Of a stretch of 64,000 nt of DNA, positions 6,758 through 23,924 are shown piece by piece. The stretch is from the NCBI GenBank assembly GCA_963840265.1, contig CAWIYA010000002.1:612289-676288 (forward strand). Direction: 5' to 3'. The notes under the pieces are model-generated. The model saw only the letters and a list, made by a program, of their open reading frames with translations, was not told where the DNA came from and did no database searches. Both the position numbers and the translations under genes were made by a program. Position 1 is the first letter of the stretch. Every line of letters begins with the position of its first letter. This stretch comes from an uncultured Chloroflexia bacterium. GTDB taxonomy: Bacteria; Chloroflexota; Anaerolineae; Anaerolineales; Villigracilaceae.

Positions 6758-6806
6758 CAACCCTACCGCTAGAGGGGTTTTTACCTGTCCAATCGGCTAG
6801 GATTTC
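6758..6806 (-). repeat. box + GC-hairpin element, copy D
   Basis: Gene-sense sequence: GAAATCCTAGCCGATTGGACAGGTAAAAACCCCTCTAGCGGTAGGGTTG. The box ends about 90 nt upstream of ATG 6694. Confidence 0.65.
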
Positions 6807-6816
6807 CCTTTTGCCG

Positions 6817-6855
6817 TAAATAAAATAGGTCGAGCACAATTTCCACTCGACCTAT
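6817..6855 (-). terminator. intrinsic terminator of the DUF2807 gene
   Basis: Minus-sense sequence ATAGGTCGAG-TGGAAATTGTG-CTCGACCTAT, followed by TTTATTTA. Confidence 0.8.
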
Positions 6856-6876
6856 TCATCTAATGCGTGGTGACGA

Positions 6877-7542
6877 TCAGGGGGTAATACTGCCCGATCC
6901 TGTGACACTATGATTTACAAGGTTGGGGTCGCCGCTGTACCGAATCGTGCCCGAGCCAGGAATTTTCGCGTCCAGGCTATCACTTGCGAAAACCGTGATG
7001 TTGCCTGAACCGCCCAATGTTACGGTCGCATTTTTTGCTTTGACCTCATCGCAGTAGATATTGCCCGATCCGCTTAAATTGACAGCTATGCTGTTGGTTA
7101 TTCCATTTGCTGTAATGTTACTAGAACCAGGGAGGTCTATCTGAATGGTATCGACATCCAGGTTGGTTATCTTGATATTTCCCGACCCGCTCAGCTCGAT
7201 ATTTTGCAGAGAATTCATCGTGACATTGACACGCACAGGAGTGCTGGAGTGAATGGTGATGTTCGATTTCAAGGCAATGATCAAGCGTTGATTTTGTATG
7301 GAAGTGACAATCAGCGGGAGAATATTATCATCCGCTTCAATAGAGACGGATTCGCTATTTCCGAACGTAATGTTTACATCGGCTGATCCTCTTAGCTCGA
7401 CTGAATTAAATGCAGTCATGCTTCGAGGTTCGTTAATGACATTTCCAGACCCTTCAACTGTGCTGGTGGTAAATGACATTATTGAACAAGCTGACATCAT
7501 CAGCGCTATCACAACAAATGCAATTATCAAGTTTTTATGCAT
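6877..7542 (-). CDS. DUF2807 (head GIN domain, beta-helix) lipoprotein
   Basis: 221 aa. The lipobox is ALMMSAC and there are repeated GSGNI/GSGTI turns. The start is at ATG 7542, with a GGGAGA RBS. Confidence 0.75.
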   Translation of the reverse strand: MHKNLIIAFVVIALMMSACSIMSFTTSTVEGSGNVINEPRSMTAFNSVELRGSADVNITFGNSESVSIEADDNILPLIVTSIQNQRLIIALKSNITIHSSTPVRVNVTMNSLQNIELSGSGNIKITNLDVDTIQIDLPGSSNITANGITNSIAVNLSGSGNIYCDEVKAKNATVTLGGSGNITVFASDSLDAKIPGSGTIRYSGDPNLVNHSVTGSGSITP

Positions 7543-7599
7543 GGTCGGTCTCCCTTGCATATTGAATTGAAGTAAGTTTAGTGAAACTTGTTGAGTATT

Positions 7600-7645
7600 G
7601 CCTCAGTCAATTGGGAGGTATTTCTCTGTCCAAATGGGTAGGTTT
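7600..7645 (-). repeat. box + hairpin element, copy E (weaker hairpin)
   Basis: Gene-sense sequence: AAACCTACCCATTTGGACAGAGAAATACCTCCCAATTGACTGAGGC. The box ends about 82 nt upstream of ATG 7542. Confidence 0.5.
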
Positions 7646-7660
7646 GGGGTACGGAGAGTA

Positions 7661-8623
7661 TTACCCCCATCCCATTGCCAACACCAGGTTATAAACATAG
7701 CCAAAGCCGATAGCGCCTATCCACAGCACTCCAACCACTACAGCGATCACGCGCCAGCGGGCAATGGTAAGAGCCCCAGCAATTGCGCCAATAGATGTGC
7801 CAGAACCGGAGATCAGGAAGGCCATGGCTGCACCCTGGCTCATACCGGCATCCAGAAGCGCCCGGATCAGTGGTAAAGAAGCTTCAGTGCTGATATAGAA
7901 CGGCAAACCTAGAGTGGCTGCCAGGGGTACGCTGTAGGTATTGCCGATTCCGAAAACTCCACCAACCCATTCTGAGGGAATCAGCCCATTCAGGAAGTAT
8001 CCAATGAACGCAAAGCCAATGAACATGACGAGCAATTGTTTTCCACTCGTCCCGACTGCTTTGAAATAGTCTTTGGTTTGCATGCTTGGTTTTATTGCTT
8101 CAGGCTGGCCGCATCCGCAGGCATCAGATTGGATCATTGGAATGGTGGCACACGAAGAACAAGGAACGAGCAGGCGGGCCTGGTTCTTCAGCCAGCCGCG
8201 ACCATCCAGGAAAGCGCCCAAGGCTCCCCCTGCCAGGCCAAGTACGATCGAGGCTGTAAAAAAGGTCAGGGAGAATGGCCAGCCAAAAAGTCCGGCACTG
8301 TAGAAAAGTTCTTCAGGAGAAGTGAGCGGTGAGGCGACCATGAAGGCGATGATGGGCGCCCAAGGCATCAAACCCGCCATCATGCCCAGAACCACTGCGG
8401 TTGTCCCGCATGAGCAAAGAGGTGTGGCTACTGCTGCCGTAGTGGCAGCCAGGACGCCAGCACTCCGGTATCTCTTGAGAAAGGTGGAGACATGCTCGGC
8501 ATTCAGAAATAATTTGAGAGCCGATGCAATTAAAATGCTCACCAGGAGAAATGGCCAGTTGTGCCAGAGGGAGAGCAGAACCTGCTCGACAGATTGAAGA
8601 AAGAGTTTCAGGATGAAGTCCAT
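7661..8623 (-). CDS. PF03773/DUF318-type predicted permease (ArsP-like)
   Basis: 320 aa, multi-TM. It has a vicinal Cys motif TPLCSCGT in a TM segment and a Cys-rich loop SSCATIPMIQSDACGCG. An AAGGAGA RBS lies upstream. Confidence 0.7.
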   Translation of the reverse strand: MDFILKLFLQSVEQVLLSLWHNWPFLLVSILIASALKLFLNAEHVSTFLKRYRSAGVLAATTAAVATPLCSCGTTAVVLGMMAGLMPWAPIIAFMVASPLTSPEELFYSAGLFGWPFSLTFFTASIVLGLAGGALGAFLDGRGWLKNQARLLVPCSSCATIPMIQSDACGCGQPEAIKPSMQTKDYFKAVGTSGKQLLVMFIGFAFIGYFLNGLIPSEWVGGVFGIGNTYSVPLAATLGLPFYISTEASLPLIRALLDAGMSQGAAMAFLISGSGTSIGAIAGALTIARWRVIAVVVGVLWIGAIGFGYVYNLVLAMGWG

Positions 8624-8693
8624 TTTTATCTCCTTTATGATAGGCTTTCATCCTGATAGACGAGGTGAGTTGTAAAAAGACGCAGGTTTGGAG

Positions 8694-9293
8694 TTAAGAT
8701 CCCGGATTACAACAACAGCAACGGTCGTAATAATCGATTACCTTGCCGCGCAGATCCAATTCAATGTGACAGCAAGCGAGGATCCTGGCGCGCAGCTTGT
8801 CACGGGCACGCTGGACCCGCGACTTGGCAGCCGAAACCGAAAGGCTAATGCTATCAGCCAATTCCACCTGGCTAAGCCCCTGGTACTCAGTCAACTCGAT
8901 TGCCTCCCGGTATACTCCGGGAAGTTCCTTAACCATATCCCGTAGTGACAATGACAATTGAGTGGACGAGTCTTCTTCATCAAATCCTGCTTCGGCCGCA
9001 AGATCAGGCGGCAATTCCACAGCGGCATGCCGCTTGCGGTAGTGGTCGATAACAAGGTTTCGGGCGATCTGGTAGATCCAGCCATCCACCTTTTCAGGCT
9101 GCGGTAGGCAGCATAGGTTGTGATGGACGCGAATAAATACTTCCTGAAGGAGGTCTTCTGCATCAGCATCATTTGTTACGCGGCTGCGCAGAAATCCAAG
9201 CAGCCGGCAGCAATATGCATTCCACAGGGTTTCAAGATTGACAGATTCCACGGAATTCTCTTGTGTAATGGAAGGAAAATTAATTGGTTTCAA
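8694..9293 (-). CDS. ECF-type sigma-70 family sigma factor with a Cys-rich C-terminal tail (SigZ/CorE-like)
   Basis: Region 2 (DAEDLLQEVFIRVHH, IARNLVIDHYRKR) and region 4 (LTEYQGLSQVELADSISLSVSAAKSRVQRAR) are present. The tail is ACCHIELDLRGKVIDYYDRCCCCNPGS. The TTG start overlaps the upstream gene, so the exact start is uncertain. Confidence 0.8.
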   Translation of the reverse strand: MKPINFPSITQENSVESVNLETLWNAYCCRLLGFLRSRVTNDADAEDLLQEVFIRVHHNLCCLPQPEKVDGWIYQIARNLVIDHYRKRHAAVELPPDLAAEAGFDEEDSSTQLSLSLRDMVKELPGVYREAIELTEYQGLSQVELADSISLSVSAAKSRVQRARDKLRARILACCHIELDLRGKVIDYYDRCCCCNPGS

Positions 9294-9744
9294 TTCGGTA
9301 ATATCGTCTTACAGGTGGGGTAAGCACAAGCAGCAAGATGGCAATTCCGATAAAAGCTGTGACGAATTGCATCGGTGCAGAGAATCCGATTAATATTCCC
9401 TCAAAAACCAACCAAATCGCCAAGCCAATTCCCAAGTACAACGTTCCCGCCCATGACCAGTGCCTGCCGCTCCACTGAACAAACAATTTCGTCCAGGTCA
9501 AGCGCGGGCGGGCAAGCAAACCATAGAGAAGAATTAGCGGAGCAATGCCCATCGCAGTCAGAAGGAACACGCCCGGCAGGGTGTAATCAGGAACAGGTAA
9601 ATGTAAGAGGAATTCAGGCGGGAGGCCCATCAAAGTTCCGGAGGGATCCTTTAAAAAGATAATTCCTCCATAGATGCCGCCAATTCCCAGCAGCAGGAGA
9701 AAAAATATTAACAACCAGAGAGTAAAGGGACGTCGAGATTTCAT
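9280..9744 (-). CDS. small membrane protein, unknown function
   Basis: 154 aa, 4 predicted TM segments. I trimmed the ORF-track start from 9906 to ATG 9744, which has a GGAG RBS; the longer form would overlap the upstream CDS. Confidence 0.6.
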   Translation of the reverse strand: MKSRRPFTLWLLIFFLLLLGIGGIYGGIIFLKDPSGTLMGLPPEFLLHLPVPDYTLPGVFLLTAMGIAPLILLYGLLARPRLTWTKLFVQWSGRHWSWAGTLYLGIGLAIWLVFEGILIGFSAPMQFVTAFIGIAILLLVLTPPVRRYYRIETN

Positions 9745-9761
9745 TGAGATCTCCAATTGGT

Positions 9762-10496
9762 TTAATAAGCCACGCTGAGAAACATCGTAGCAAAGGACAT
9801 ATTCATCAGAACATGGACGATGGCTAAATAAGGCAGCATGCGCGGACGCCAATGGATAATTAATCCCGTCAGGAAAGCGAACGGTAAATACATCAGTCCA
9901 CGCCAAAGAATAAAACGAATATCAAAAAGAAGCGGCATGGTAATATGCTGAATACCAAGCATGAGTGCAGGTAAAGAAACAGCCAGCCATGGGCGGACCT
10001 GATTATTTTTTAGCACAGGCATGATGTAACCAAAATATGTGACAAGCTCAGCAAATCCTTGAGTAATGGGGAATAAAATGATTCCAATATATACCGCCCA
10101 AAACGGCAGGGTGCGAACAAACATATCCAGGGTCGCATTCGAGTCCCCGAATAGCCACCCACCTAACAAGATATTTGGGAGAATGGATACAGGTGCAAAT
10201 ATTATGGTAATTCCTAACAATGCCAGGAGATCACCTTTAACTCTGTGACGGTCGAACCGGAAAATGTCCAAGTATTGTTTTCCTTCGTCCCGGAAAACGC
10301 GGACCAGAATTACGACAGTAACCAGGTTTGCGATGGCTACAATGATCGGCCACCAATTGGCAGAAGTTTCCCATGCATTTTTGGAGCCTGCGAGATAAAA
10401 CCCGAGGGCAAAAATGGCTTGAATGAAGGCGAACAAGGTCAAACGTGAAAAAAGCATGAACCAGGGGGTTGAGGATTTGGAAGCTGGCGCGTCCAT
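9762..10496 (-). CDS. CPBP (Abi/CAAX-protease-like) intramembrane protease homologue with a partly degenerate motif 1
   Basis: 244 aa. It is a paralogue of 15071..15853. The His motifs LGIQHITM and IVHVLMNM are kept, but motif 1 reads FAELVTYFGY...PVL instead of EExxxR. Confidence 0.6.
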   Translation of the reverse strand: MDAPASKSSTPWFMLFSRLTLFAFIQAIFALGFYLAGSKNAWETSANWWPIIVAIANLVTVVILVRVFRDEGKQYLDIFRFDRHRVKGDLLALLGITIIFAPVSILPNILLGGWLFGDSNATLDMFVRTLPFWAVYIGIILFPITQGFAELVTYFGYIMPVLKNNQVRPWLAVSLPALMLGIQHITMPLLFDIRFILWRGLMYLPFAFLTGLIIHWRPRMLPYLAIVHVLMNMSFATMFLSVAY

Positions 10497-10585
10497 TTGA
10501 CATCTCCTTATTTAATACTATCTAAATTCTTTATCCAAACATTCCACCGTGTTTGGGGAATTTGGGAAATTGGGAATTGAATAGA

Positions 10586-10792
10586 TTAGTAAACTGGTGA
10601 ACCCACATTTCTGTTTTGAGAGGTAGACGACCGAAGCATTTGGAATTTTGAGTTGTAAGCATAATAATTAGGTGATTCCCTGGGCAAGAAGAATGAAAGC
10701 CGGGCAAACTGCATCAATTTGAGACCATAGGGGGGATATTCCTCTCCCAGACGGCGAGAACCTTTTCGAGGGAATTGGAGGCATGAGTACAA
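10586..10792 (-). pseudogene. N-terminal remnant of a CPBP paralogue
   Basis: PPYGLKLMQFARLSFFL...RNVGSPVY aligns with PRYGPMLMLFARSSFIL...RNWWPVY of 15071..15853. At DNA level, 10675..10705 matches 15723..15753 at 28 of 31 nt. There is no room for the remainder of the gene. Confidence 0.55.
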
Positions 10793-10830
10793 GCATTTGG
10801 GTATTTCTTGCTGGTGAATGGTCGAGATTT

Positions 10831-11742
10831 TCAGGAGAGAACCATCAGTGTCTCAATGATCGTTCTGATGTACTTGTGAATCAGTGAAATGTGACCTTCG
10901 CCGGGATAGAACATTGCTTCAACATTGGGAAGGTTCTGCGCCAGCATTCTACCGTGCGAAGCAAAGGGAGCGTTCACATCCTCTTCTCCGTGCCAGATGC
11001 AGACCTTGGTGCGGATGTCTTCGAGCCGGAATCCCCAGGGCTTCCAGTAGAGGGCACCAGCCTCGGCAACCCCCAGCCCACCCTGGCGGAGAGCCTCCAC
11101 GCCGCCATCCAAGTTGACCGCATTCACCTGTGGATGCGCCTGGATGAAAGCGAAATCCGCCTCGGCCATCATAGCTTTTTTGGCTGACTTGGGCAGCTGG
11201 TCGCGCGGGGCGTTTGCCAGAGTTTTTTTCATCATATTAAACATGAACCAGGTCAGGCGCGGATGGATGCGGGCAGTTGTCCACAACATGATGGTTGGCA
11301 TACCGTCAGTTGCGCCAGGCACGCCAAACGGCTGGGCAACCCCGCTCACCACGCCCACAGCTGTCAGGCGGTCCTGCAGCGCGTAGGCGCACGCTAAAGC
11401 ATAGGGACTGCCTGCTGAGTAACTCATCAATGCAAATTTATCGATGCGCAGGCCATCGGCGAGGCGGGCGACATCCTGCTGCCAATCGGTAAAGTGGTGT
11501 CGCGGCTGGTAGCTCGATAATCCGAAGCCGGGGCGGTCCACCGCAATGACACGAACGTTCAACTGCTTCGCGATCTCGTTGCCGTTGAAGCCGCCAAACT
11601 CGACCCGAGAACTAGGCCAACCATGAAAGTAGAACAGCGGTTTTCCTTGCGAAGCGCCATATTCGTCATATCCCAGCAAGCGGCCATCAGCCAGATGAAA
11701 GGTTTGTTGTTCGCGGTTGGTGTCTGCGGAAATTGTCCTCAT
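10831..11742 (-). CDS. alpha/beta-fold hydrolase
   Basis: 303 aa. It has an HGWPSS oxyanion-region motif, a nucleophile elbow SYSAGS, and a C-terminal GEGH. Confidence 0.75.
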   Translation of the reverse strand: MRTISADTNREQQTFHLADGRLLGYDEYGASQGKPLFYFHGWPSSRVEFGGFNGNEIAKQLNVRVIAVDRPGFGLSSYQPRHHFTDWQQDVARLADGLRIDKFALMSYSAGSPYALACAYALQDRLTAVGVVSGVAQPFGVPGATDGMPTIMLWTTARIHPRLTWFMFNMMKKTLANAPRDQLPKSAKKAMMAEADFAFIQAHPQVNAVNLDGGVEALRQGGLGVAEAGALYWKPWGFRLEDIRTKVCIWHGEEDVNAPFASHGRMLAQNLPNVEAMFYPGEGHISLIHKYIRTIIETLMVLS

Positions 11743-11750
11743 GGTCTATC

Positions 11751-12602
11751 TCAATTCCTGACAAGAGTGTCCTGTCGTTGGATTGGCAATTCTTCGACCG
11801 GCATCCGGGATAAATAGCGCGGCTTGAAAATGAAGAGTGTAGCCACAACAACCAGGAAAAGCAGTGGCCCGGCGGTCATATAGAAAAGCATTGCAGGCAT
11901 CAGACTCACAGCACCTGCGATAAGAGTCGAGGACAGGTTGTAGGTGAAATGCGCCAAGATGGTGATGACCACGCTGCCGCGCGTGTTGTTGTACAACCAG
12001 GTCAGGTAGAGCGTGATCGTTAGTACCAAGAACAGGTAGATGGGCATGGGGATGCCCATCTGCGTGGCGCCGGTCAGGTAAAAGAACGGCAGGTGCCAAA
12101 AGGTCCAGATCACGCCGAGGATCAGGCTGGATACCAAGGCATTGTATTTAGATTGTAAACGCGGCAGTGCAAAACCACGCCAGCCCAGTTCTTCCCCAAT
12201 CGGGCCGGAAAAAAGCTGGAAAACGATGATCCCCAGCAGGGAGGATGTTGTCACGCCCGGCTTGAGGCCCGCGGCCGGATGTCCCAGCGCAATATAGACC
12301 AGTGCAATTACCAACGGACCGAGCAACAAGAACGCGGCAGCGAAATACCACCTCAACCCCACCTTCCAGCGTGTAATGCCAGCCAGCAAACGCTTTACAT
12401 TGCTCCATCCGCCAGTGATCCCTGAAATGATCAGACCGCTGATGGTTGGGCTGAAGATGCCAAGCGCCCACACCAGCGACCAGGGTTGCAGGGGTTTTCC
12501 CGGTTGAAGGAAGATATACCCGAACATGACGCCAAACATGATCCCGTACGCGAGAACAAAAAACGAGACGAGTTGATGTTTATTAATCCAGTTTTTCATC
12601 AT
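11751..12602 (-). CDS. CPBP family intramembrane metalloprotease
   Basis: 283 aa. Canonical motifs are present: GEELGWRGFALPRL, WTFWHLPF and LAHFTYNL. Confidence 0.85.
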   Translation of the reverse strand: MMKNWINKHQLVSFFVLAYGIMFGVMFGYIFLQPGKPLQPWSLVWALGIFSPTISGLIISGITGGWSNVKRLLAGITRWKVGLRWYFAAAFLLLGPLVIALVYIALGHPAAGLKPGVTTSSLLGIIVFQLFSGPIGEELGWRGFALPRLQSKYNALVSSLILGVIWTFWHLPFFYLTGATQMGIPMPIYLFLVLTITLYLTWLYNNTRGSVVITILAHFTYNLSSTLIAGAVSLMPAMLFYMTAGPLLFLVVVATLFIFKPRYLSRMPVEELPIQRQDTLVRN

Positions 12603-12647
12603 TTTTGACTCCTTTTTCGACTACCCACAGGATACCGCCCATCAATC

Positions 12648-12700
12648 AAAACTCCCCCTGCTAAATGGGGAGTTTTTTACTGTCCGAATGGACAGGTTTG
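12648..12700 (-). repeat. box + GC-hairpin element, copy A
   Basis: Gene-sense sequence: CAAACCTGTCCATTCGGACAGTAAAAAACTCCCCATTTAGCAGGGGGAGTTTT. The box ends about 77 nt upstream of start 12602. Confidence 0.7.
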
Positions 12701-12753
12701 TCACTCTTCGAAATTTTCTCAATATCTCCGCTTTTTGATTATGCAATACCTTA

Positions 12754-14259: not shown

Positions 14260-14302
14260 GGTTTGCTCCTGCGGTTCTTTCTGTGGAATAGATGATAACA
14301 AC

Positions 14303-15061
14303 TTATGAATTTGCCTTAAGGTTCTGCCTGGCCTTATTTGCCATCTTGGACATCATTTTTCCCATCTGGACGCGCATGTGATAGCTCATCCACAATTGGA
14401 ACCCGTTGACCAACCCTGAAACAATCACCGGACCTTTCTTCCCAACAAGTTTTGCCAATCCGCGCCCGACAGTATTAGGGTCGGCCATCATTTGAGGTGG
14501 GACTCCAAACCCTGCGGCTGATTGTGTTCGTGTTAGTGGCGGATGCATCACATTAAATGTAATGCCATCAGGCGCATATTCAAGTGCCAGGGTACGAGTG
14601 AGTGACTCGATCGCCCCTTTGCTTGAGGTATATCCGCTCATACCGGGCATGCCTGTAAAGCCAACACCCGAACTAAGATTGTGGACCATCCCATATCCCT
14701 GCTTCTGCATGATCGGGAGAACAGCATGTATCATGTTAAGATACCCAAAATAGTTAACCTCCATCTCCCGCCGAATATCATCTATTGTGCGTTCATCAAA
14801 TCGTTTGAACAAGGCAAAACAAGCGTTGTTGACCAGGACATCCACACTGCCCCACTGATGAATGACCCCATTCACAAGGGACTGGACGATGGCGGAATCA
14901 GTGACATCACAGACGAATGAAAGGAGATTGTGATTTGTTGAATCGAGGTTTCCAATGGAAAGGTCGAGTGCAGCGACACGGTCTCCCCTTTCCAATAAGC
15001 TGTTCGCCATCGACAATCCAATGCTATTGTTGGCACCTGTGATAATAATGGTTCGATTCAT
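14303..15061 (-). CDS. SDR family oxidoreductase
   Basis: 252 aa. It has the ITGANNSIG cofactor motif and the YTSSK catalytic motif. Confidence 0.85.
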   Translation of the reverse strand: MNRTIIITGANNSIGLSMANSLLERGDRVAALDLSIGNLDSTNHNLLSFVCDVTDSAIVQSLVNGVIHQWGSVDVLVNNACFALFKRFDERTIDDIRREMEVNYFGYLNMIHAVLPIMQKQGYGMVHNLSSGVGFTGMPGMSGYTSSKGAIESLTRTLALEYAPDGITFNVMHPPLTRTQSAAGFGVPPQMMADPNTVGRGLAKLVGKKGPVIVSGLVNGFQLWMSYHMRVQMGKMMSKMANKARQNLKANS

Positions 15062-15070
15062 GTCTTTCCT

Positions 15071-15853
15071 CTATCCGACCTGGTACAAAAATAAAACATT
15101 CGAAAGATCCATCAGCCAATGTGCAACGATAAGCGGTGGCAGACGACGGATGCGCAGATAGACCAGTACCATCGCAATGGAAAGCGGGACGAAGGCGAGA
15201 AACATATAGAACCCGAACTGGAAACCGGCTAGCATCAGGAAACTGTGCTGGATGGCAAAGAAGAAAGAAACCACCGCTACCGATTTCCAACGGGATTTGG
15301 TCAAGGCAAGCAGCCGCGGCAGGGCATAGCCGTTATAGGTCATTTCTTCGGTGGCAGACCAAAGCGGCCACCAGAGAATCCGGGCGTAAAGCAACGCAAA
15401 CAATGGTAGGATGCGCGTGAACGTGTATTCCGGAAATTCTGGATTGAGTGTGCCGTATGCGATCAACTTTGCCAGCATCCCGCCACCAAAGATAGTTATG
15501 GGAGCAATCACCAAAAATAATCCCAGCCCAAGCGGGATTTCGGTTTTTAGTTTGGTTTTTACTAATTCGAGCAAGTCGAACAGGCGAATCCCTTCCCGCC
15601 TGGTCAACAACATTAATAGTCCCAGGCAGCCGAAATCTACCAAGGTGCCGTACACTGGCCACCAGTTACGGATGACAACCGATGCATTTGAAACCTTGAG
15701 TTGCATAAACAGTAGATAAGTTATTCCCTGGGCAAGTAGAATGAAAGACGAGCGCGCAAACAACATCAGCATGGGGCCGTAGCGCGGGATTCGGCCCGCT
15801 GCGAGACGGGATTGAACCGCTTGTTGCGAGTTTAAGGAAGGATCAGTTTGCAT
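15071..15853 (-). CDS. CPBP family intramembrane metalloprotease
   Basis: 260 aa. Motifs: ATEEMTYNGYALPRL, FAIQHSF and VAHWLMDL. An AAGGAGA RBS lies upstream. Confidence 0.8.
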   Translation of the reverse strand: MQTDPSLNSQQAVQSRLAAGRIPRYGPMLMLFARSSFILLAQGITYLLFMQLKVSNASVVIRNWWPVYGTLVDFGCLGLLMLLTRREGIRLFDLLELVKTKLKTEIPLGLGLFLVIAPITIFGGGMLAKLIAYGTLNPEFPEYTFTRILPLFALLYARILWWPLWSATEEMTYNGYALPRLLALTKSRWKSVAVVSFFFAIQHSFLMLAGFQFGFYMFLAFVPLSIAMVLVYLRIRRLPPLIVAHWLMDLSNVLFLYQVG

Positions 15854-15889
15854 GGCAATCTCCTTTCATCAAAGAATAGCATTCTAGTT

Positions 15890-15942
15890 AAAAAATAACC
15901 CCCTACCAGAGGGGGGGTTTGTACTAGTCAGGTGGACAGGTG
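15890..15942 (-). repeat. box + GC-hairpin element, copy C (overlaps the stop of the upstream gene; the hairpin also works as a terminator)
   Basis: Gene-sense sequence: CACCTGTCCACCTGACTAGTACAAACCCCCCCTCTGGTAGGGGGTTATTTTTT. The box ends about 68 nt upstream of start 15853. Confidence 0.65.
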
Positions 15943-16572
15943 ACGATTGAAAGAAATGATCAGCAGGATACATAAAAAGATAAATCCAGGGCCCCACGCA
16001 AGTGCACCCACATAAGTAAGCCAGGTGATCCCCAGTGGCAAAGCCAGGACAGAAACCAGGCACAGGATTCCATTCCCTGCTAGAGTCCATGAAAGAAGTC
16101 TTTCAAACCGACCGCCATTGAAAACAGGGGTGAGGAATATAAATGCCAGTCCTAAGAAAAAGCCCCAGGCGAGATTCTCCATTCCGGTCATGATTGAGTA
16201 TGCACCATAGGGAGTAAACCAATCGATTCCACTGCTTTTACCCATATACAATCCTGGGCGAACAATTGCCAGATGGGTAAATCGGTTTATGCTGGTTACG
16301 CCAGCAAAGAGAGTGGCAAAGGCGAGTGCAATCAAACTCAGAAGTTTCCGGTCATCGGGGGTACAGGCGTGGATTACTGCAAATAGGATCAAGATCACAA
16401 TTCCAGAAAGCAGACTGATGATACTGATGAGCATCCCATAAGGCTCAACAGGTGGAAACCCAGATGAAGAAGAAGCAGTTGCCACCATGGCACCGAGATA
16501 AGCCAGAGCCAGAACGACACCGCTTATTGAAATCCAAATTCCAAAGCGAAGATTATATTTAGTAGCGTTCAT
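15928..16572 (-). CDS. polytopic membrane protein, unknown function
   Basis: 214 aa, about 6 hydrophobic segments. I recognise no family motif. Confidence 0.55.
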   Translation of the reverse strand: MNATKYNLRFGIWISISGVVLALAYLGAMVATASSSSGFPPVEPYGMLISIISLLSGIVILILFAVIHACTPDDRKLLSLIALAFATLFAGVTSINRFTHLAIVRPGLYMGKSSGIDWFTPYGAYSIMTGMENLAWGFFLGLAFIFLTPVFNGGRFERLLSWTLAGNGILCLVSVLALPLGITWLTYVGALAWGPGFIFLCILLIISFNRHLST

Positions 16573-16587
16573 AGGGAGTATCTCTCT

Positions 16588-17796: not shown

Positions 17797-17836
17797 TTAG
17801 TCTCCAATAATTTCGATTTGATAAAAGCGCTCAGGA

Positions 17837-18544
17837 TTAAAACAAGATAACCACCAGATTCATTGCAGCATGCAACAATATCGATGGATAAACGCTCTCA
17901 GTCTTATAGCGAGCATACCCATATACAACACCCCAAATGGTCGCATTGAGGACCTGGATTGCAACAAAATTAATTGGGACGCCTGCTGCCAAATTATTAG
18001 CATGCAAAAGGCCAAATGTAATTCCACCCAGCCAGACCGACAATTGATTGCTGGTATTCTCAGAGTAAAGGACTCGAAAAGCCCAGAGAAGTGCACTGAA
18101 AACAAGGCCGCGCCAGAATATCTCTTCCACGAGGGGCACTGTGATCACTTCGGTCACCAGCCATTGGTTTCCGCTATAAGGTGTCGTGCTACCTGTCAAC
18201 CACAAGTAAGCAGCAATAACTCCGCAGTTGGCGAATACCATGATCAGCAGCATGAGCCAATGCTCACGTAACTTTCCGACCTTGAAACCAAGTTGCCGCG
18301 GCCGCCAAAGAATTAACGGAATTATGAGGATTATCAGGTGTAAACGCGAAACTACTCCCCACAGATTGGCCAACCAGGCAGATGTTCCCACATTGGGGAA
18401 GTGTGCATCGGCGAACTTGAAATATGCATTATCAACCACCAGGAAGACGACGGTGAAGGTAGCAATTGCTAGTAGAATTAAAACCGTAAATTTGAGTTTT
18501 CTCGATCCAGGCATTGGATTGATTGCTGTCACAATATTGTTCAT
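17837..18544 (-). CDS. CPBP family intramembrane metalloprotease
   Basis: 235 aa. Motifs: LVEEIFWRGLVF, FGLLHANN and LLHAAMNL. Confidence 0.85.
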   Translation of the reverse strand: MNNIVTAINPMPGSRKLKFTVLILLAIATFTVVFLVVDNAYFKFADAHFPNVGTSAWLANLWGVVSRLHLIILIIPLILWRPRQLGFKVGKLREHWLMLLIMVFANCGVIAAYLWLTGSTTPYSGNQWLVTEVITVPLVEEIFWRGLVFSALLWAFRVLYSENTSNQLSVWLGGITFGLLHANNLAAGVPINFVAIQVLNATIWGVVYGYARYKTESVYPSILLHAAMNLVVILF

Positions 18545-18625
18545 TAAAATTCCTTTCGTAAAAAATAATAAATGTCTGCTTTGTTTCGGTGGGGAAAATT
18601 TGCTTCTCGCACTTTCTGGAAAATC

Positions 18626-18982
18626 TTACTCCATATGAATTAAAATGTGGACACTGACTACGTCAAGCGCAAGGAGAACCACAAACATTCCCACCATCGG
18701 CAACTGACCAAGTTGGGCAAAGTATCCGGGGCTGACGATAGTTGTATATGCTAACAACCCACCAGCAAAAACTGCCAGGTTCTTTGCCCAACTTGCACCC
18801 CGCAGTAAGGCAATCCCACCACCCAGAAGACAAATCGCAGTAATAAATTCCGCTGCCAGGTGAAAAGAAAGAGCTATCGGCTCTGTCTGCACCTCTGGCA
18901 CCGCTCCCGCAGCAAGAAAAAAGCCCCATTGTCCAAACATAATGACGCCGACGAGAATAAAATACCAGGCTGAAAATTTCAT
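18626..18982 (-). CDS. small 4-TM membrane protein, unknown function
   Basis: 118 aa from ATG 18982, with a GGAG RBS 8 nt upstream. The ORF-track start at 19015 lacks an RBS. Confidence 0.55.
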   Translation of the reverse strand: MKFSAWYFILVGVIMFGQWGFFLAAGAVPEVQTEPIALSFHLAAEFITAICLLGGGIALLRGASWAKNLAVFAGGLLAYTTIVSPGYFAQLGQLPMVGMFVVLLALDVVSVHILIHME

Positions 18983-19126
18983 GTTTGTTACTCCATAACT
19001 TTGATAACCAGCCATAGACCATAAATCTATTGTTTAGCAGAAAAAAGTGTAATAATTCCAAATGATCGGAGCGAACTTTTCCGAAGGTATATCATCTTGC
19101 TGAATTTATCTTATTGCATACATATC

Positions 19127-19179
19127 AAAACTCCCCCTGCCAAAGGAGGAGTTTGATACTGGTCAAGTGGATAGGATTT
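19127..19179 (-). repeat. box + GC-hairpin element, copy B
   Basis: Gene-sense sequence: AAATCCTATCCACTTGACCAGTATCAAACTCCTCCTTTGGCAGGGGGAGTTTT. It starts 9 nt after the stop of the DUF2807 gene. Confidence 0.7.
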
Positions 19180-19187
19180 AGAAAAGA

Positions 19188-19940
19188 CTATTTGGATCCG
19201 AGGGCCTTGTAAGTTCCCAGTCCGGTTGTGCTGGTACTGGTCTGAGGATTGCCATAATAAGCAATATTGCCACCCCCGCTGATACTGCCGGTCAATTGAT
19301 CCGTGACCCATACGGTGGCGCTGCCCAACCCCGGAATGGTGATGTTGGCAGTCTGAACCTTAAGATCGGGAGCGTTCACGCTTCCCGCGCCCGAGATATT
19401 GATGGTTGCCTGCGGAACTACACCGGTGAGGTCGACATTCCCCAACCCGCTGACGTTGATATTGGTGGTGTCAGCTGTCAGCTGATCGATCTTTACCTGA
19501 CCGGCACCGCTCATGGTAATTGCCAGAGCAGAGGTCGAGAGGGAACCCATCCCAACTTCGCTCAACCCGCTGACCGTCAGGGAGGTTAGGTCCTTGACTG
19601 AAATCGTGAAAGTTAACACGTTTTCGTTGTTCAGGGTCGTGACGTTGACATCCTCTTTCAATTCCAACGTCAGAATCCCGTTTTGAATAGAGGATGTGAC
19701 CAGGGGGACGACATTGTCACTACCTTGAACTGTCAGCGCTTCGTTGGAACCCTGGCTGAGAATGATCTTGCCGAATGTACGCATATCGATGCCCTTGAAA
19801 TTGCTCACAGAACGGGTCTCGCTGATTATGGCATTCGAAGGCGTAATGACCTTGCCATTTCCGGTGATTTGGAAAATTCCACAACCGGTCACCAGGATGG
19901 CTGCCAGCAAAACCGGCAGAATTACGGAAGTTTTTTTCAT
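19188..19940 (-). CDS. DUF2807 (head GIN domain) lipoprotein, second paralogue
   Basis: 250 aa. The lipobox is LVTGC, and there are repeated SGLG/SGAG beta-helix turns. An AGGAGA RBS lies upstream. Confidence 0.75.
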   Translation of the reverse strand: MKKTSVILPVLLAAILVTGCGIFQITGNGKVITPSNAIISETRSVSNFKGIDMRTFGKIILSQGSNEALTVQGSDNVVPLVTSSIQNGILTLELKEDVNVTTLNNENVLTFTISVKDLTSLTVSGLSEVGMGSLSTSALAITMSGAGQVKIDQLTADTTNINVSGLGNVDLTGVVPQATINISGAGSVNAPDLKVQTANITIPGLGSATVWVTDQLTGSISGGGNIAYYGNPQTSTSTTGLGTYKALGSK

Positions 19941-19963
19941 ATGATCTCCTTATTGGATGATAA

Positions 19964-20311
19964 TTAATCAGGCAGCAGCACATTGACAATCAAGCCAATG
20001 CCTGCCAGGGCAATTAGGATGGGGCCAAGGAAGGTCCAGTTCATGCTAAATAGAAACATGGCGGTCACAAGTACCAGGACCAGCCCCACGATCAGGACTC
20101 CCCGTGCACGCACATTAAACCTTCCACCGGCAGCCTGGACGACCCGCCCGGCAGTTGCAAACGAACCCAATGCCGGGATCAGGATAAATAATGCCCACCA
20201 ATTGCTGAGGGTGTAGATCTTGAGATTCTGCAGAAGCAAGATGCCTGCCAGCAGGATGAGGATGATCCCCAAGATCCACCCACCACGTCCGCGGGAACCA
20301 CGCCTTTCCAT
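19964..20311 (-). CDS. small LiaF-TM-like membrane protein
   Basis: 115 aa. It has an Arg/Gly-rich N-terminus followed by 4 TM segments containing the SNWWALFILIP motif. It lies 23 nt upstream of the DUF2807 gene. Confidence 0.6.
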   Translation of the reverse strand: MERRGSRGRGGWILGIILILLAGILLLQNLKIYTLSNWWALFILIPALGSFATAGRVVQAAGGRFNVRARGVLIVGLVLVLVTAMFLFSMNWTFLGPILIALAGIGLIVNVLLPD

Positions 20312-20587
20312 CCGACGTTCCAGCCTCTCTTCTCGGCGACCCGAGAAATTGGAAGTGGCATATTTTCTGTCATTTTTCCCTTCCTTTCAAATACGGATTT
20401 TGGGTGACACTTGATATACGTCGATTCCAGCAACTTGTTTTTACAAAATTCCAGATAAAGGCTAACCCAATAACCCCGACAGAATGGTATCCTTACCTTC
20501 GTTGACCTTTCGGCGATTCCATATGCTGAAATATTAGAAATTGAACAACCCAATTAAGTGAACACGCTTAGTGTAGCCAATTGCCCT

Positions 20588-20639
20588 AAAATTTACCCCT
20601 GCCAGAAGGCAAGTATTTCCCTGTCCAGGTGGATAGTTG
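20588..20639 (-). repeat. box + hairpin element, copy F, in the divergent region next to the kinase operon
   Basis: Minus-sense sequence: CAACTATCCACCTGGACAGGGAAATACTTGCCTTCTGGCAGGGGTAAATTTT. It is about 310 nt upstream of start 20311 and about 150 nt from the kinase start 20790. Confidence 0.5.
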
Positions 20640-20789
20640 CCGGCAAATTCGTGAATTTGGAGCCAATTTTAGTCAAGGGAAAGCTTTTTCCAGGTTTTTG
20701 GGTTATTACTCCTGAATAATTGGGTGAGCTTCCAGAGATGATGTTCATAGAAACAGGGTAAAATCCATTGTAGTACGCAGGTGACATAA

Positions 20790-23168
20790 ATGCCCAGAAT
20801 AAAGACCACCACCAAATCCCCGGCCCAAACCATTGAAGATCTCAAACGCTCAGAAGCCACCTTCCGAGCCATGTTCGAAACCTCTGCAGTCGGTATCGGA
20901 ATTCTCGGCCTAGATCACAAGATAATTGACGCCAACCCGGCTATTTGCCGAATGTTTGGACGGACAAAAGAGCAGTTCATCGGTCAAGAACCAGCTGTTG
21001 CTACCCTCCCCGAGGATTACCCAAAATCAACGGAAGAATTCCAGGAATTAATGGATGGCAAGCGGGATTATTATTGGGATGAACGCCGATATGTGCGTAC
21101 GAATGGGGATGTATTTTGGGCACATGTGACCATGAGTGTGGTCCGGGATGAAAACAGGATACCGCTGTACCTGGTAGGCATGGTCATCGATATTGATGAG
21201 CAAAAACGAGTTGTGGCTGAATTGCAGACATCCGAATCTCGCTCCCGCGCCATTTTTGAGAACTCCACGGTCGGATTGTTGATCCTCGATGTCAGCAATT
21301 TGACCTTTCAAACCAATGCCGCTGCTCGTGCAATCCTGGATGATCCTGATTTGAATCGGAAACTCAAAGATGTATATGAATTCATCCATGTTCGCTACCA
21401 GGAGTTGGAACGTGATCTTTTCAACCAGTTGCTGAACGGGAAACGCGATCACTATGAAACAGAGCGAATTTATCAGCGCCCTGGGGAAGAGCCAAAATTA
21501 GCAAATCTGACTTTTTCAGCCATCCGCGATGCAAACAAACAGCTCCGTTATATTCTGGGAATGATCGACGATATCACGGAAAAGAAAAAAGTCCAGGACA
21601 GCCTGCGCGAATCCGAAGCGCGCTTCCGGGCAATGTTCGAGAGTTCAGCGATGGGGGTTTTTATCCTGGACGTCAATACCCTGACCTTGCGCTCCAATGA
21701 CGCTGCCAAAGCCATCGTGGAAGATCCTTACCAAGATCGAAAGCTAGAGGATGTATATGAATTCCTCAACCCTCGCTACCGGGAAGCAGAGCGCGATCTT
21801 TACGACCAATTGCTGAGAGGGGACCGGGATACCTACGTAGTGGAGCGCTGTTATTTTCAACAACCGGGAGAAGGGGAGAAATGGGCAAAAGTGACGTTTT
21901 CCACAATAAGGGGAAAAGATGGGAAACTTAATTACGTGGTAGCGATGCTCGATGAGATCACCGAACAGAAAAATGCCCAGGATAACCTGCGTGAAACAGA
22001 GGCACGGTTCCGGGCAATGTTTGATAATGTGTCTGTCGGTATGTCTTTGATGGGCCTGGACCGGCGAGCGATGGCAGTTAATCAAGCGACCGAGCGGATT
22101 ATCGGTTACTCGGCGGAAGAAATCCCCAATGTTGACATCTCCCTTTTGACCTTCCCTGATGATCGAGAGATCGGAGTGAAAGAGTTCGGGGAATTGACCG
22201 TCGGCAAACGGGACAGTCTCCAGATGGAAAAGCGCTACATACGCAAGAATGGTGATGTCTTTTGGGCACGTGTGACGTATTCCCTGGTTCGTAACGCAGA
22301 GGGAAAGCCTCAATACCTCGTGGGATCAATCGAAGATATCAATGAGGTGAAACTGGCTTCCCAAAAATTGGCGGCACAGGAGGCGGAAAATCTCCGGAAT
22401 CTCGAGCAGCGGGTGAAGGAACGTACCCGCGAATTGAGTGAAGCAAACCTGCGCCTGGTGAATGAGATCGAACACCGCCAGAAAGCGGAGGAAGCCCTGG
22501 CAGCCAAGGCTGTAGAGGAGGCGATTACTTCCGAAAGAACCCGCCTGGCTCGCGACCTGCACGATGCAGTCACCCAGACCCTCTTCTCCGCCAGTTTGAT
22601 CGCAGAAGTCCTGCCCGAGATGTGGAAAATGGACGAAGTCGAAGCGAGGAATTCTACTGAAGAGCTGAGACAGCTTACCCGAGGCGCCCTGGCGGAAATG
22701 CGCACACTGCTGCTTGAGCTTCGCCCGGCTGCCCTAACCCAGGCACGCTTTCCTGATCTGCTCAAGCAGCTCAGTGAGGCCTTGATCGGACGTGCCCGAC
22801 TGCCCATCAACCTGCAAGTAAGTGGTGATTATGAAATGCCGCCCGATGTCAAAGTGGCTTTTTACCGGATCGCCCAGGAGAGTCTGAATAACATTGTAAA
22901 GTATGCACGTGCCGACCAGGTGGAAATTCAACTTCGATTACAGTGCTGCAATGTTCATCTTAAAATCAAAGATAATGGAACCGGTTTCGATACTTCAGCG
23001 ATTAAACCCACCAGCCTGGGCATGCGCATCATGAGGGAACGCGCAGATGCAATCCATGCCCATCTGAACATTGACAGTAGTCCAGGGCAGGGAACTTCAG
23101 TCAGCCTGGATTGGAACGAAGATGAGTTAATACCGATCTCTAAAATCATTACGAGAGGTGAAACATGA
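20790..23168 (+). CDS. soluble multi-PAS sensor histidine kinase (HisKA_3/NarX-LiaS class)
   Basis: 792 aa with no TM segment. There are four PAS units, each opening with an xxRFRAMFE-like helix, then a coiled coil, the H-box RLARDLHDAVTQTLF, and HATPase motifs (NNIVKYA, DNGTGF, GLGMRIM). Confidence 0.9.
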   Translation: MPRIKTTTKSPAQTIEDLKRSEATFRAMFETSAVGIGILGLDHKIIDANPAICRMFGRTKEQFIGQEPAVATLPEDYPKSTEEFQELMDGKRDYYWDERRYVRTNGDVFWAHVTMSVVRDENRIPLYLVGMVIDIDEQKRVVAELQTSESRSRAIFENSTVGLLILDVSNLTFQTNAAARAILDDPDLNRKLKDVYEFIHVRYQELERDLFNQLLNGKRDHYETERIYQRPGEEPKLANLTFSAIRDANKQLRYILGMIDDITEKKKVQDSLRESEARFRAMFESSAMGVFILDVNTLTLRSNDAAKAIVEDPYQDRKLEDVYEFLNPRYREAERDLYDQLLRGDRDTYVVERCYFQQPGEGEKWAKVTFSTIRGKDGKLNYVVAMLDEITEQKNAQDNLRETEARFRAMFDNVSVGMSLMGLDRRAMAVNQATERIIGYSAEEIPNVDISLLTFPDDREIGVKEFGELTVGKRDSLQMEKRYIRKNGDVFWARVTYSLVRNAEGKPQYLVGSIEDINEVKLASQKLAAQEAENLRNLEQRVKERTRELSEANLRLVNEIEHRQKAEEALAAKAVEEAITSERTRLARDLHDAVTQTLFSASLIAEVLPEMWKMDEVEARNSTEELRQLTRGALAEMRTLLLELRPAALTQARFPDLLKQLSEALIGRARLPINLQVSGDYEMPPDVKVAFYRIAQESLNNIVKYARADQVEIQLRLQCCNVHLKIKDNGTGFDTSAIKPTSLGMRIMRERADAIHAHLNIDSSPGQGTSVSLDWNEDELIPISKIITRGET

Positions 23169-23794
23169 CAGCCATACGAATACTCCTGGTGGATGACCAC
23201 GCCGTCGTTCGCAGTGGGTTGAGCAAATTCCTGATGGTCAACAAAGACCTTGAATTGGTCGCCGAGGCCTCGGATGGAGCCGAAGCAATCCAAATGACTG
23301 GCTTGCACAAGCCCGATGTGATACTAATGGATCTGATGATGCCAGGGATGGACGGCATTTCGGCTACGCGAGAGATCCATAAAAAATACCCCATGGTTAA
23401 GGTGATCGCCCTGACAAGTTTCTCAGAGCAAAACATGGTCCAGGGCGCTCTGCAGGCTGGAGCTATCGGGTTCCTGCAGAAAAATGTCACTGCCGTGGAA
23501 TTGGGAAGTGCCATTCGTTCCGCCCATGCTGGACGCATGACCCTTTCCCCCGAGGCGGCGCAGGCTCTTGCTCAGACAGTAACCCTGTCTCACCTGCCAG
23601 GTAACGGGTTGACCGATCGGGAGAGGGATGTCCTGCGCTGCATGGTGGAGGGACTGAACAATAACGAAATTGCGGAGAAATTGGTCATCAGCCTAGGTAC
23701 GGTAAAGTTTCACATTTCGAATATTTTCCAGAAACTTGGCGTCGACAGCAGAGTCGAAGCAGTCAAGCTGGGCATCGAACAAAAAATAATCTAA
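23165..23794 (+). CDS. NarL/LuxR-family response regulator
   Basis: 209 aa. The REC domain has LVDDH and the phospho-acceptor DVILMDLMMPGMDG. The C-terminal LuxR HTH reads LTDRERDVL...NNEIAEKL. A 4-nt overlap couples it to the kinase gene. Confidence 0.9.
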   Translation: MTAIRILLVDDHAVVRSGLSKFLMVNKDLELVAEASDGAEAIQMTGLHKPDVILMDLMMPGMDGISATREIHKKYPMVKVIALTSFSEQNMVQGALQAGAIGFLQKNVTAVELGSAIRSAHAGRMTLSPEAAQALAQTVTLSHLPGNGLTDRERDVLRCMVEGLNNNEIAEKLVISLGTVKFHISNIFQKLGVDSRVEAVKLGIEQKII

Positions 23795-23841
23795 TCTCCC
23801 ATTGTTTAAGTTTAGCTGCGACTCGAGTCGCCGATAATATA

Positions 23842-23883
23842 CCTATCCGTTCGGCTAGGTAAAACCTCGACCTACGGCAGGCG
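23842..23883 (+). repeat. box element, copy J (the only plus-strand copy, upstream of a plus-strand gene)
   Basis: CCTATCCGTTCGGCTAGGTAAAACCTCGACCTACGGCAGGCG. The box ends about 63 nt upstream of ATG 23925. Confidence 0.6.
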
Positions 23884-23924
23884 CTATTCCATTTCGTAAA
23901 GCGTAAACTTCAGGCGAGGTAAAA

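Follow-up and report, generated by a model that had tools for sequence, protein, structure and literature searches.

Within a 64,000-nt stretch of DNA from an uncultured Chloroflexia bacterium (GenBank assembly GCA_963840265.1, contig CAWIYA010000002.1, positions 612,289 to 676,288; hereafter "the window"), seven oriented copies of a short conserved element are associated with genes for envelope and signalling proteins, which raises the question of what the element does and which protein reads it. The original prediction described a quasi-palindromic box, an A-rich stretch, and a C-run/G-run hairpin with a conserved GGYAGG, and offered four explanations: the operator of an adjacent NarL/LuxR-type regulator, a promoter for an extracytoplasmic function (ECF) sigma factor, a leader RNA or attenuator, and a repetitive extragenic palindromic (REP)-like repeat. 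Our analysis indicates that the copies are probably ~70-bp, activator-dependent promoters of the σ70 type, in which the operator of a LiaR/VraR-like response regulator, a terminator for the upstream gene, and a -10 element are combined.

Each copy is present where the original prediction had placed it, and the box, the A-rich stretch, the C-run/G-run hairpin, and the conserved GGYAGG can all be found, copy E being degenerate as had been described. Two measurements required revision. The distance from the 17-nt box to the start of GGYAGG, given as 19-20 nt, is 17 nt (16 nt in C), and the element, drawn at ~45-50 nt, is a unit of ~70 nt, since a conserved -10-like hexamer (TAnnnT) had been missed, which lies at indices 63-68 in all seven copies (index 1 is the first base of the box). 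The description of a hairpin common to all copies holds in part: it is strong in A, B, and C, moderate in F, and weak or absent in D, E, and J. In a leave-one-out scan with a 51-nt position weight matrix (PWM), the seven copies score 22-51 bits, while the best other site in the window scores 9.8 and the shuffle maximum is 13. A 72-nt model built from 144 sites, all from genomes other than the source, recovers exactly the seven copies (20.8-62.9 bits), with the next-best window site at -10.1 bits and a shuffle maximum of -14. The profile scans find no further copies in 1-6.7 kb and none in 24-64 kb, which agrees with the earlier inspection by eye of 25-64 kb. The modules are as follows; each box starts at index 1, positions relative to the start site are set by placing the first T of TAnnnT at -12, "site 2" is a degenerate second copy of the box, and bit scores are those of the 72-nt model.

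Module A, 12629..12696 (-): box 12696..12679 (CCTGTCCATTCGGACAGT); site 2, putative terminator hairpin and T-run 12676..12646; -10 TATCCT 12634..12629; predicted start ~12622; gene, CPBP protease 11751..12602; hairpin folding energy -14.9 kcal/mol; 62.3 bits.
Module B, 19108..19175 (-): box 19175..19158, with the variant 3' half TGACCAG; hairpin and T-run 19155..19125; -10 TAAGAT 19113..19108; predicted start ~19101; gene, small protein with four transmembrane (TM) segments 18626..18982/19015; hairpin folding energy -16.5 kcal/mol; 62.9 bits.
Module C, 15873..15940 (-): box 15940..15923; hairpin and T-run 15920..15890; -10 TATTCT 15878..15873, or TAGAAT 15886..15881, 8 nt upstream; predicted start ~15866 or ~15874; gene, CPBP protease 15071..15853; hairpin folding energy -11.9 kcal/mol; 42.0 bits.
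Module D, 6734..6801 (-): box 6801..6784; site 2 without a real hairpin 6781..6751; -10 TATAAT 6739..6734; predicted start ~6727; gene, 320-aa membrane protein 5732..6694; 43.9 bits.
Module E, the most degenerate copy, 7575..7642 (-): box 7642..7625; no hairpin; -10 TAAACT 7580..7575; predicted start ~7568; gene, DUF2807 lipoprotein 6877..7542/7560; 20.8 bits.
Module F, 20570..20637 (-), in the divergent region beside the kinase gene: box 20637..20620; moderate hairpin 20617..20587; -10 TACACT 20575..20570; predicted promoter start ~20563; faces a LiaF-TM-like gene 19964..20372 (probable start ATG 20372); 43.8 bits.
Module J, 23842..23909 (+): box 23842..23859; site 2 CCTCGAC-CTA-CGGCAGG 23865..23881; no hairpin; -10 TAAACT 23904..23909; predicted start ~23916; gene, receiver-only protein 23925..24287; 44.7 bits.

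The anatomy of the module is seen most clearly across genomes. A scan of 185,579 species-representative genomes with a pattern covering only indices 1-30 returned 98 stretches, ~90% of them labelled Anaerolineales or Chloroflexi, of which about four look like chance matches. A box PWM run over all fetched DNA then gave 211 unique sites from ~55 Anaerolineales assemblies; the -10 region played no part in site selection. In 196 of the 211 sites, TAnnnT starts at indices 62-64 (index 63 in 151, 62 in 32, and 64 in 13), with 1-10 sites at each neighbouring position and a background of ~2% per position. In the profile, the box at -74 to -57 is followed by the A-rich stretch at -54 to -51, CTCCCC at -50 to -45, a loop with G at -40 (91%) and then R, Y, and R, GGGG at -36 to -33 followed by A and G, TTTTT at -30 to -26, a segment without information from -25 to -13, and TAtnAT at -12 to -7. 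A search for a -35 element (TTGACA, 16-18 nt from the -10) found at most three of six matching positions in 195 of the 196 sites and never more than four. The -10 element, its rigid spacing (within 1 nt in those 196 sites), and the missing -35 element are established by this analysis; the start sites are placed from TAnnnT and hence predicted. Because an open reading frame (ORF) lies downstream of 197 of the 211 sites, with the start codon at a median index of 100 (~25 nt past the predicted start site) and a Shine-Dalgarno sequence in 172 of the 197, the unit is predicted to be a complete promoter with a short leader, the hairpin lying upstream of the predicted start site.

Other candidate parts were considered and rejected. 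The loop sequence TTGGCA/TTGACG as a -35 element is separated from the -10 by 24 nt in virtually all sites, with nothing conserved 17 nt after it; GTAAAAAC as a -10 element occupies a position without a TAnnnT consensus; a sigma-54 reading of TGGCAG...TTGA, judged by eye, has a spacing off by 3 nt; and a small leader peptide after the hairpin is inconsistent between copies.

How the two conserved parts upstream of the -10 element are read, as DNA or as RNA, can be judged from their patterns of variation. The box is an 18-bp inverted repeat, nCTnnCC-N4-GGnnAGn, centred at ~-65.5, in which positions 2, 3, 6, and 7 (C2, T3, C6, C7) and 12, 13, 16, and 17 (G12, G13, A16, G17) hardly vary. Positions 4 and 15, which do vary, assort independently of each other (GC 71, AC 55, AT 45, and GU 40), J-type sites accept mismatched halves, and covariation of a box helix in a 140-sequence alignment is not above that of shuffles (53, 93, and 83 of 500). 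Because the halves vary independently, without base-pair covariation, the box is, as judged from its sequence, a DNA operator built of two half-sites, CCT[AG][TG]CC, each of which would be read independently.

The C-run/G-run hairpin with its T-run, which spans -54 to -26, behaves differently. Its covariation exceeds all 500 shuffles by three measures, and the variable stem pairs contain far more G.U than A.C (AT 84, GC 27, GT 22, and AC 2 at one; CG 109, TG 28, TA 5, and CA 1 at a second), so that pairing appears to be under selection in the sense-strand RNA. The median folding energy is -15.8 kcal/mol, compared with -4.9 for shuffled sequences, and a T-run (at least five T in 8 nt) then follows in 69% of sites. 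The upstream neighbour is co-directional in 144 of 181 cases, its stop codon lies a median of 34 nt from the box, and a terminator scan of the window lists the hairpins of A, B, C, and F. Most simply, then, the hairpin is a predicted intrinsic terminator of the co-directional upstream gene. Intergenic packing is very tight: the distance from stop codon to box has a 5th percentile of 4 nt over the whole set of sites.

Modules D and J, which lack the hairpin, are each preceded by a separate one, and the same arrangement is present in several orthologous loci, clear examples being J-type orthologs, L103, and L095 (L numbers denote loci of other genomes). The element at D is as follows.

Separate intrinsic terminator of the DUF2807 gene (AATAGGTCGAG..CTCGACCTATTTT), 6822..6856 (-), just upstream of module D.

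Because of this terminator, module D is not simply a terminator of its upstream gene, and the arrangement fits with the loss of the embedded hairpin in D. At J, a perfect 14-nt palindrome, GCGACTCGAGTCGC, lies at 23818-23831 (+), between the regulator stop codon and the box; in the orthologous loci L002, L003, and L093, its place is taken by a G+C-rich hairpin with a T-run. The palindrome is probably the terminator of the kinase-regulator operon, with a window copy that has no T-run.

The stretch under the hairpin holds a further signal. Site 2, ACTCCCC-N3-nGRYRGG, is a degenerate 7-3-7 copy of the box at -51 to -35, and its centre at -43 lies 22.5 bp, or about two helical turns, from the box centre. 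In ~70% of sites, this stretch doubles as the 5' arm and loop of the hairpin. The two can be separated in the 30 sites without a canonical stem, which keep A-53, C-50, C-45, G-40, C-38, A-37, G-36, and G-33; an example of the J type is CCTCGAC-CTA-nGGCAGG. When a half-site PWM made from 422 box halves was slid over indices 19-93, it peaked only at -51 to -45 in the forward sense (mean -2.8) and at -41 to -35 in the reverse sense (mean -5.5), with ~-22 elsewhere. The loop bases and the polarity of the stem are conserved beyond the needs of pairing, which would be explained because the region is a degenerate copy of the box. By analogy with regulators of the same clade, site 2 may function as a secondary operator.

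A candidate for the protein that binds the box is encoded within the array itself, in an operon with a histidine kinase that is followed by module J and the gene of a receiver-only protein.

Cognate histidine kinase, 20790..23168 (+), four PAS domains plus HisKA_3/HATPase_c, no membrane segment.
NarL/GerE-family response regulator, the proposed box binder, 23165..23794 (+), Response_reg and GerE domains.
Receiver-only protein, a conserved regulon member, 23925..24287 (+), phospho-acceptor Asp changed to Asn in this clade.

The best solved relatives of the regulator are LiaR and VraR (5hev, 1.5e-45, 7ve6, and 4gvp; E values from 1e-45 to 1e-40), which rank ahead of ChrA, DevR, NarL, and DesR. 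Its orthologs (58-94% identity) adjoin modules in other genomes; at 58% identity or more, they occur in 8 of the 98 motif-selected blocks, ~40 times the chance expectation for a single-copy gene. When all proteins of these blocks were clustered without prior assumptions, the NarL/GerE regulators (18 blocks) were the only recurrent DNA-binding family. The kinase is soluble by hydropathy (maximum Kyte-Doolittle value 1.17), its transmitter is closest to LiaS, although below the family cut-off, and its orthologs are found only in metagenome-assembled genomes (MAGs) of Anaerolineales or Chloroflexota. The regulator is 83-94% identical where the kinase is only 66-72% identical, and the order regulator-[module]-receiver persists at loci whose kinases are 72, 66, 56, and 46% identical. 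Within the window, the modules are predicted to drive the genes that flank the kinase-regulator operon on either side.

From these relationships a mechanism can be proposed. The 18-bp box at -74 to -57 would be the high-affinity operator for a dimer of regulator 23165..23794. Upon phosphorylation, the regulator would spread from this first site to site 2, about two turns downstream and in the place usual for a -35 hexamer, as VraR does from its R1 to its R2 site and as the LiaR tetramer does. From site 2 it would bring in RNA polymerase at a promoter lacking a -35 element of its own, and initiation directed by the TAnnnT -10 element would yield an mRNA with a ~25-nt 5' untranslated region (5'UTR) containing a Shine-Dalgarno sequence. 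Meanwhile, the hairpin, formed in the sense-strand RNA of the neighbour, would end the co-directional transcript whose gene stops a median of 34 nt upstream. Because of this embedded terminator, each gene or short operon in a tandem array would be insulated from its neighbour and individually dependent upon the regulator. We infer both the identity of the binding protein and activation, rather than repression. Thus, of the four original explanations, the first is the one that the evidence favours, in its identification of the box as the operator of the adjacent regulator and of a Lia-like envelope regulon; the direct autoregulation that it included is not seen, and it needs to be changed in that the copies would be whole activator-dependent promoters, in which the hairpin would terminate transcription of the gene upstream and overlap a secondary operator.

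The distribution of the element is consistent with regulation of this kind. In five loci with kinase orthologs at 66-72% identity, the element occupies the same relative positions: ahead of the receiver gene (J-type), within the divergent region across from the kinase (F-type), and upstream of CPBP, DUF2807, and SDR genes. It is still present at loci with 56% and 46% kinase identity. The module J sequence is kept before the receiver gene in L001-L005, L093, L104, and L105, the position of F is also occupied in L002, L003, and L004, and D has a near-identical copy in L065. One MAG has 17 sites in six 8-kb blocks, the sites being clustered in islands as they are in the window. The original prediction had proposed a PWM scan of other genomes; in that scan, orientation is strict, downstream genes show a class bias, and the element is conserved at the orthologous loci of relatives. 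Paralogous gene duplication was rejected as the source of the similarity, the flanks not aligning and the modules preceding unrelated families.

The commonest protein families in the 98 blocks are, besides the NarL/GerE regulators, ABC ATPases (22 blocks), CPBP proteases (at least 15), hydrolases, and SDRs, and PAS-HisKA_3 kinases (12) and DUF2807/toastrack proteins (9) are also frequent. Among the 197 genes that come first after a module are at least 24 CPBP proteases, 13 ABC ATPases, 9 receiver-only proteins, and 8 LiaI/LiaF-like TM or DUF7144 proteins. HlyD, DUF2807, squalene/phytoene synthase, serine and metallo-beta-lactamase-fold proteins, DUF6544, and many unannotated membrane proteins are also found in this position. 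The downstream gene set looks like that of an envelope or antimicrobial-stress response.

Several observations weigh against the proposed activator-promoter or against parts of it. For the terminator, strong hairpins are present in 22 of the 37 sites whose upstream gene is divergent, where there is nothing co-directional to terminate; the ratio of G.U to A.C is 18:14 at divergent sites compared with 68:27 at co-directional ones, a trend that is not significant; and over all sites, the presence of a separate terminator upstream of weak-hairpin sites is not significant (p = 0.54). The match of site 2 is weak, its mean PWM score lying below 0, and in most sites its signal is confounded with that of the hairpin. 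The box, nCTnnCC-N4-GGnnAGn, departs from the LiaR consensus, T(X)4C(X)4G(X)4A, with which it shares just the central C-N4-G. Finally, the scan of the window found no module that faces the kinase-regulator operon, so the link to this regulator is made by adjacency and analogy, and several NarL-family paralogs lie near motifs, making a regulator encoded elsewhere possible.

These last points are the ones that bear upon the identity of the protein, and they lead to a different explanation, in which promoter and terminator are real and the box is bound by another factor, such as a NarL/LuxR paralog, a MalT-type STAND LuxR protein, or an unlinked regulator; instead of activating in the manner of VraR, the bound protein might then repress or play an architectural part. 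In addition to the mismatch with the LiaR consensus and the missing module before the kinase-regulator operon, the presence of NarL-type paralogs (43-47% identity) and MalT-like GerE proteins in some motif-bearing loci speaks for it. However, the close regulator ortholog is a recurrent neighbour both in the motif-selected 8-kb blocks and in all seven ortholog loci, the geometry is that of VraR R1/R2, and the missing -35 element speaks for activation, not repression. On balance, we consider another factor unlikely.

The explanation as a leader RNA or attenuator, also among the original four, would have transcription start upstream of the box, so that the box and terminator hairpins would form a termination switch within a 5'UTR. 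The hairpin is indeed under apparent selection at the level of sense-strand RNA and followed by a U-run, and pairing between GGCAGG and the 5' half of the box is conceivable in principle. However, the box has no pairing constraint, nothing is conserved upstream of it, and in D a bona fide terminator ends only 20 nt before it. The hairpin lies upstream of the predicted start site and of a strongly conserved -10 element at fixed distance; 30 sites, including J and its orthologs, have no hairpin and yet keep all else; and Rfam yields no relevant match, either at the gathering threshold or at E values up to 10. A leader RNA is therefore very unlikely.

Equally improbable, in our estimate, is a REP-like selfish repeat, a miniature inverted-repeat transposable element (MITE), or a cassette spread by duplication, whose conservation would simply reflect recent copying. 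A stereotyped sequence of ~70 nt with many copies per genome, clustered in islands, would be expected of such a repeat, and the stem sequence is more uniform than pairing alone demands, with hairpins kept in divergent contexts. Against it stand the strict orientation, the fixed distance to the -10 element and to a start codon with its Shine-Dalgarno sequence, dissimilar flanks, the class bias of the downstream genes, and the lack of any terminal repeats or transposase seen; furthermore, the same sites are found at orthologous positions where the kinase is only 46-72% identical, and the compensatory changes in the hairpin indicate long-term selection. Finally, a promoter for ECF sigma factor 8694..9293, with an AAAYC-like -35 and a GTAAA-like -10 element, is scarcely credible, since, although a SigZ-family ECF gene lies inside the cluster and the element contains AAAC, the two halves of the dyad box vary independently of each other, which is unlike a -35 element, the position-conserved hexamer is a σ70-type TAnnnT 45 nt after the box rather than at the proposed -10, no conserved CGT-type -10 follows AAC at 16-17 nt, only 1 of 98 blocks, from a near-identical relative, has an ECF ortholog along with the motif, and the gene itself apparently lies inside the module A transcription unit.

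Given that the copies are probably activator-dependent promoters, it can be asked whether the ending of transcription in one unit is mechanistically coupled to regulator-dependent initiation in the unit that follows, as in a fused terminator-promoter switch. The hairpin overlaps the proposed phosphorylation-dependent site 2 and the -35 position, which is why coupling comes into question, and sliding and reinitiation of polymerase after termination have been seen in vitro (PMC6978380). Polymerase released at the terminator might be captured by the adjacent promoter, or regulator on site 2 might change the efficiency of termination. We think such coupling decidedly improbable; if true, it would provide a switch that balances read-through against re-initiation along tandem arrays, and a cassette that has been reused whole, in the course of evolution, at hundreds of promoters.

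The region from 5.7 to 24.7 kb of the window falls into seven predicted units, one for each module.

Unit F: LiaF-TM-like protein, DUF2807.
Unit B: small membrane protein, CPBP, SDR, 214-aa protein.
Unit C: CPBP, SDR, amine oxidase.
Unit A: CPBP, hydrolase, and on through to ECF sigma and ArsP permease.
Unit E: DUF2807.
Unit D: 320-aa membrane protein.
Unit J: pseudo-receiver, 146-aa protein.

Around the copies there are three CPBP (Rce1-like) proteases, two DUF2807 proteins, one LiaF-TM-like protein, small membrane proteins, SDRs, an amine oxidase, an alpha/beta hydrolase, an ArsP-type permease, and a SigZ-family ECF sigma factor, in addition to the PAS kinase/NarL-type regulator operon and the receiver-only protein. 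Other members of the cluster to which the 320-aa protein 5732..6694 belongs give weak matches to LiaI-LiaF-like TM or DUF7144 domains. The ECF sigma factor, 8694-9293 (-), passes the SigZ cut-off (TIGR02959, 191 bits versus 168.65); in the interval from module A (12.7 kb) to module E (7.6 kb), it has neither a module nor an obvious terminator of its own. This sigma factor may thus belong to the targets of the regulon instead of regulating it.

The receiver-only protein 23925..24287 has LLLLNW in the clade of the window and L001-L003 and L093, with ADPDP replacing the acidic pocket, while the distant orthologs L030, L031, L043, and L090 keep the Asp (LLLLDW). Because Asp is lost in this clade and kept in the distant orthologs, the protein appears to have become a pseudo-receiver recently, and it is possibly a feedback modulator of the regulator or kinase. 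The 146-aa protein that follows it, 24291-24731 (+), has no family match; a protein of 58-60% identity is at the same place in L003-L005 and L059, and it is likely to be a further member of the signalling module.

Some features of individual sites complete the description. In 27 of the 211 sites, the 3' half of the box, otherwise GGMYAG behind a 4-nt spacer, is replaced by TGAC[CT]AG behind a spacer of 3 nt. This variant, seen in the window at 19158-19175 and 15923-15940 (-), shares its 7-3-7 spacing with the proposed secondary site, and it may represent a lower-affinity or differently regulated subclass. Box C contains the TGA stop codon of ORF 15928..16572 (-), such that coding sequence and putative operator overlap. 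At F, where the box is palindromic, a mirror-image module toward the kinase was looked for, and no TAnnnT was found at the mirrored position. Downstream of F, two ORFs of different frame, 20179-20553 and 19964-20311 (-), share 133 nt, and a good Shine-Dalgarno sequence with an ATG at 20372 opens a reading frame that leads into the LiaF-TM-like ORF of another frame. The 19964-20553 region probably holds a single frameshifted gene (~135 aa), which would be a pseudogene or the product of a long-read assembly error; such a gene would leave module F with an unusually long leader of ~190 nt.

Complete modules, with hairpin and -10 element, also occur on most of the differently labelled contigs, from MAGs assigned to other phyla.

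L051 (CAVPSQ01, "uncultured proteobacterium", 805-kb contig): complete module plus an 81%-identical regulator ortholog.
L058/L097/L098 (JBLMZU01, "Bacteroidota"): complete modules.
L063/L087/L092/L094 (JBLNAU01, "Syntrophothermus"): complete modules.
L052 ("Ectothiorhodospiraceae"): complete modules.

These are probably mislabelled records or mis-binned Anaerolineales contigs.

Anaerolineales are an abundant, largely uncultured order of the Chloroflexota in which transcriptional control is almost undescribed, and a literature search on envelope-stress promoters of Anaerolineae found no paper describing this motif. The modules would specify a regulon for a two-component system, with its operator, promoter anatomy, targets, and candidate regulator. 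The targets (CPBP proteases, ABC exporters, LiaF/LiaI-like, toastrack, and beta-lactamase-fold proteins, and the pseudo-receiver) suggest an envelope or antimicrobial-stress response under a cytoplasmic PAS kinase. In addition, many membrane proteins that are labelled "hypothetical" in these MAGs can be annotated with the help of the motif, and the cassette could serve as a natural promoter part that is compact, insulated, and inducible, and as a convenient system for the effects of terminator-promoter overlap in tandem gene arrays.

How, then, does the module compare with known systems? The box resembles the lux boxes, CT-N12-AG dyads of ~18-20 bp that are read by a dimer of the GerE-type helix-turn-helix (HTH) of LuxR-family activators. 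The proteins that bind lux boxes are acyl-homoserine-lactone receptors rather than phosphorylated response regulators, and the centre of these boxes is at ~-42.5 (class II). As in a lux box, the outer CT...AG is invariant here and 12 nt apart (C2 T3 ... A16 G17); unlike the lux arrangement, the strong dyad lies at -65.5, and only a weak second site lies at ~-43.

A closer likeness is found with the vraSR promoter of Staphylococcus aureus and with the LiaR-dependent promoters of enterococci and Bacillus, which are controlled by NarL-family (GerE HTH) regulators of the same clade. VraR binds a conserved R1 site (-75 to -50) as the unphosphorylated protein, while the less conserved R2 site (-46 to -26) requires phosphorylated VraR (PMC6612188). 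In Enterococcus faecalis, the activated LiaR tetramer covers the consensus and an adjoining secondary site, ~42-44 nt in total, and bends the DNA; polymerase is believed to be recruited by this tetramer (PMC4482077). Relative to the predicted start, the dyad operator of the module, at -74 to -57, corresponds to R1, and site 2, at -51 to -35, is less conserved and reaches the -35 region like R2 and the secondary site of LiaR. In addition, the predicted targets are envelope-related in both cases, with LiaF/LiaI-like and toastrack proteins among those of the module. There are also differences. LiaS and VraS are membrane kinases that work with LiaF or VraT, whereas the kinase here is soluble, with four PAS domains, and LiaF-TM-like proteins appear only among the targets. 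The LiaR/VraR operons are autoregulated, whereas no module faces the kinase-regulator operon of the window. Furthermore, the regulon is large (at least 17 promoters in one genome) and dominated by CPBP proteases and ABC transporters, its secondary site is fused to a terminator hairpin, and its hosts belong to the Chloroflexota (order Anaerolineales), not the Bacillota.

The overlap of a terminator with the next promoter also has a precedent in the "operon concatenation" of Enterobacteria, as at tufB-secE and S10-spc-alpha (PMC6735719). There, too, the upstream terminator overlaps the downstream promoter, and the arrangement is conserved in evolution. However, those overlaps are unique to single housekeeping loci, whereas here one stereotyped cassette is found at more than 200 promoters of what would be a single regulon, and the putative terminator lies between the activator site and the -10 element. 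Thus, the kind of regulon promoter, the LiaR/VraR type, is known; what is new is its lineage, its sensor, and the stereotyped fusion of operator, terminator, and -10 element.

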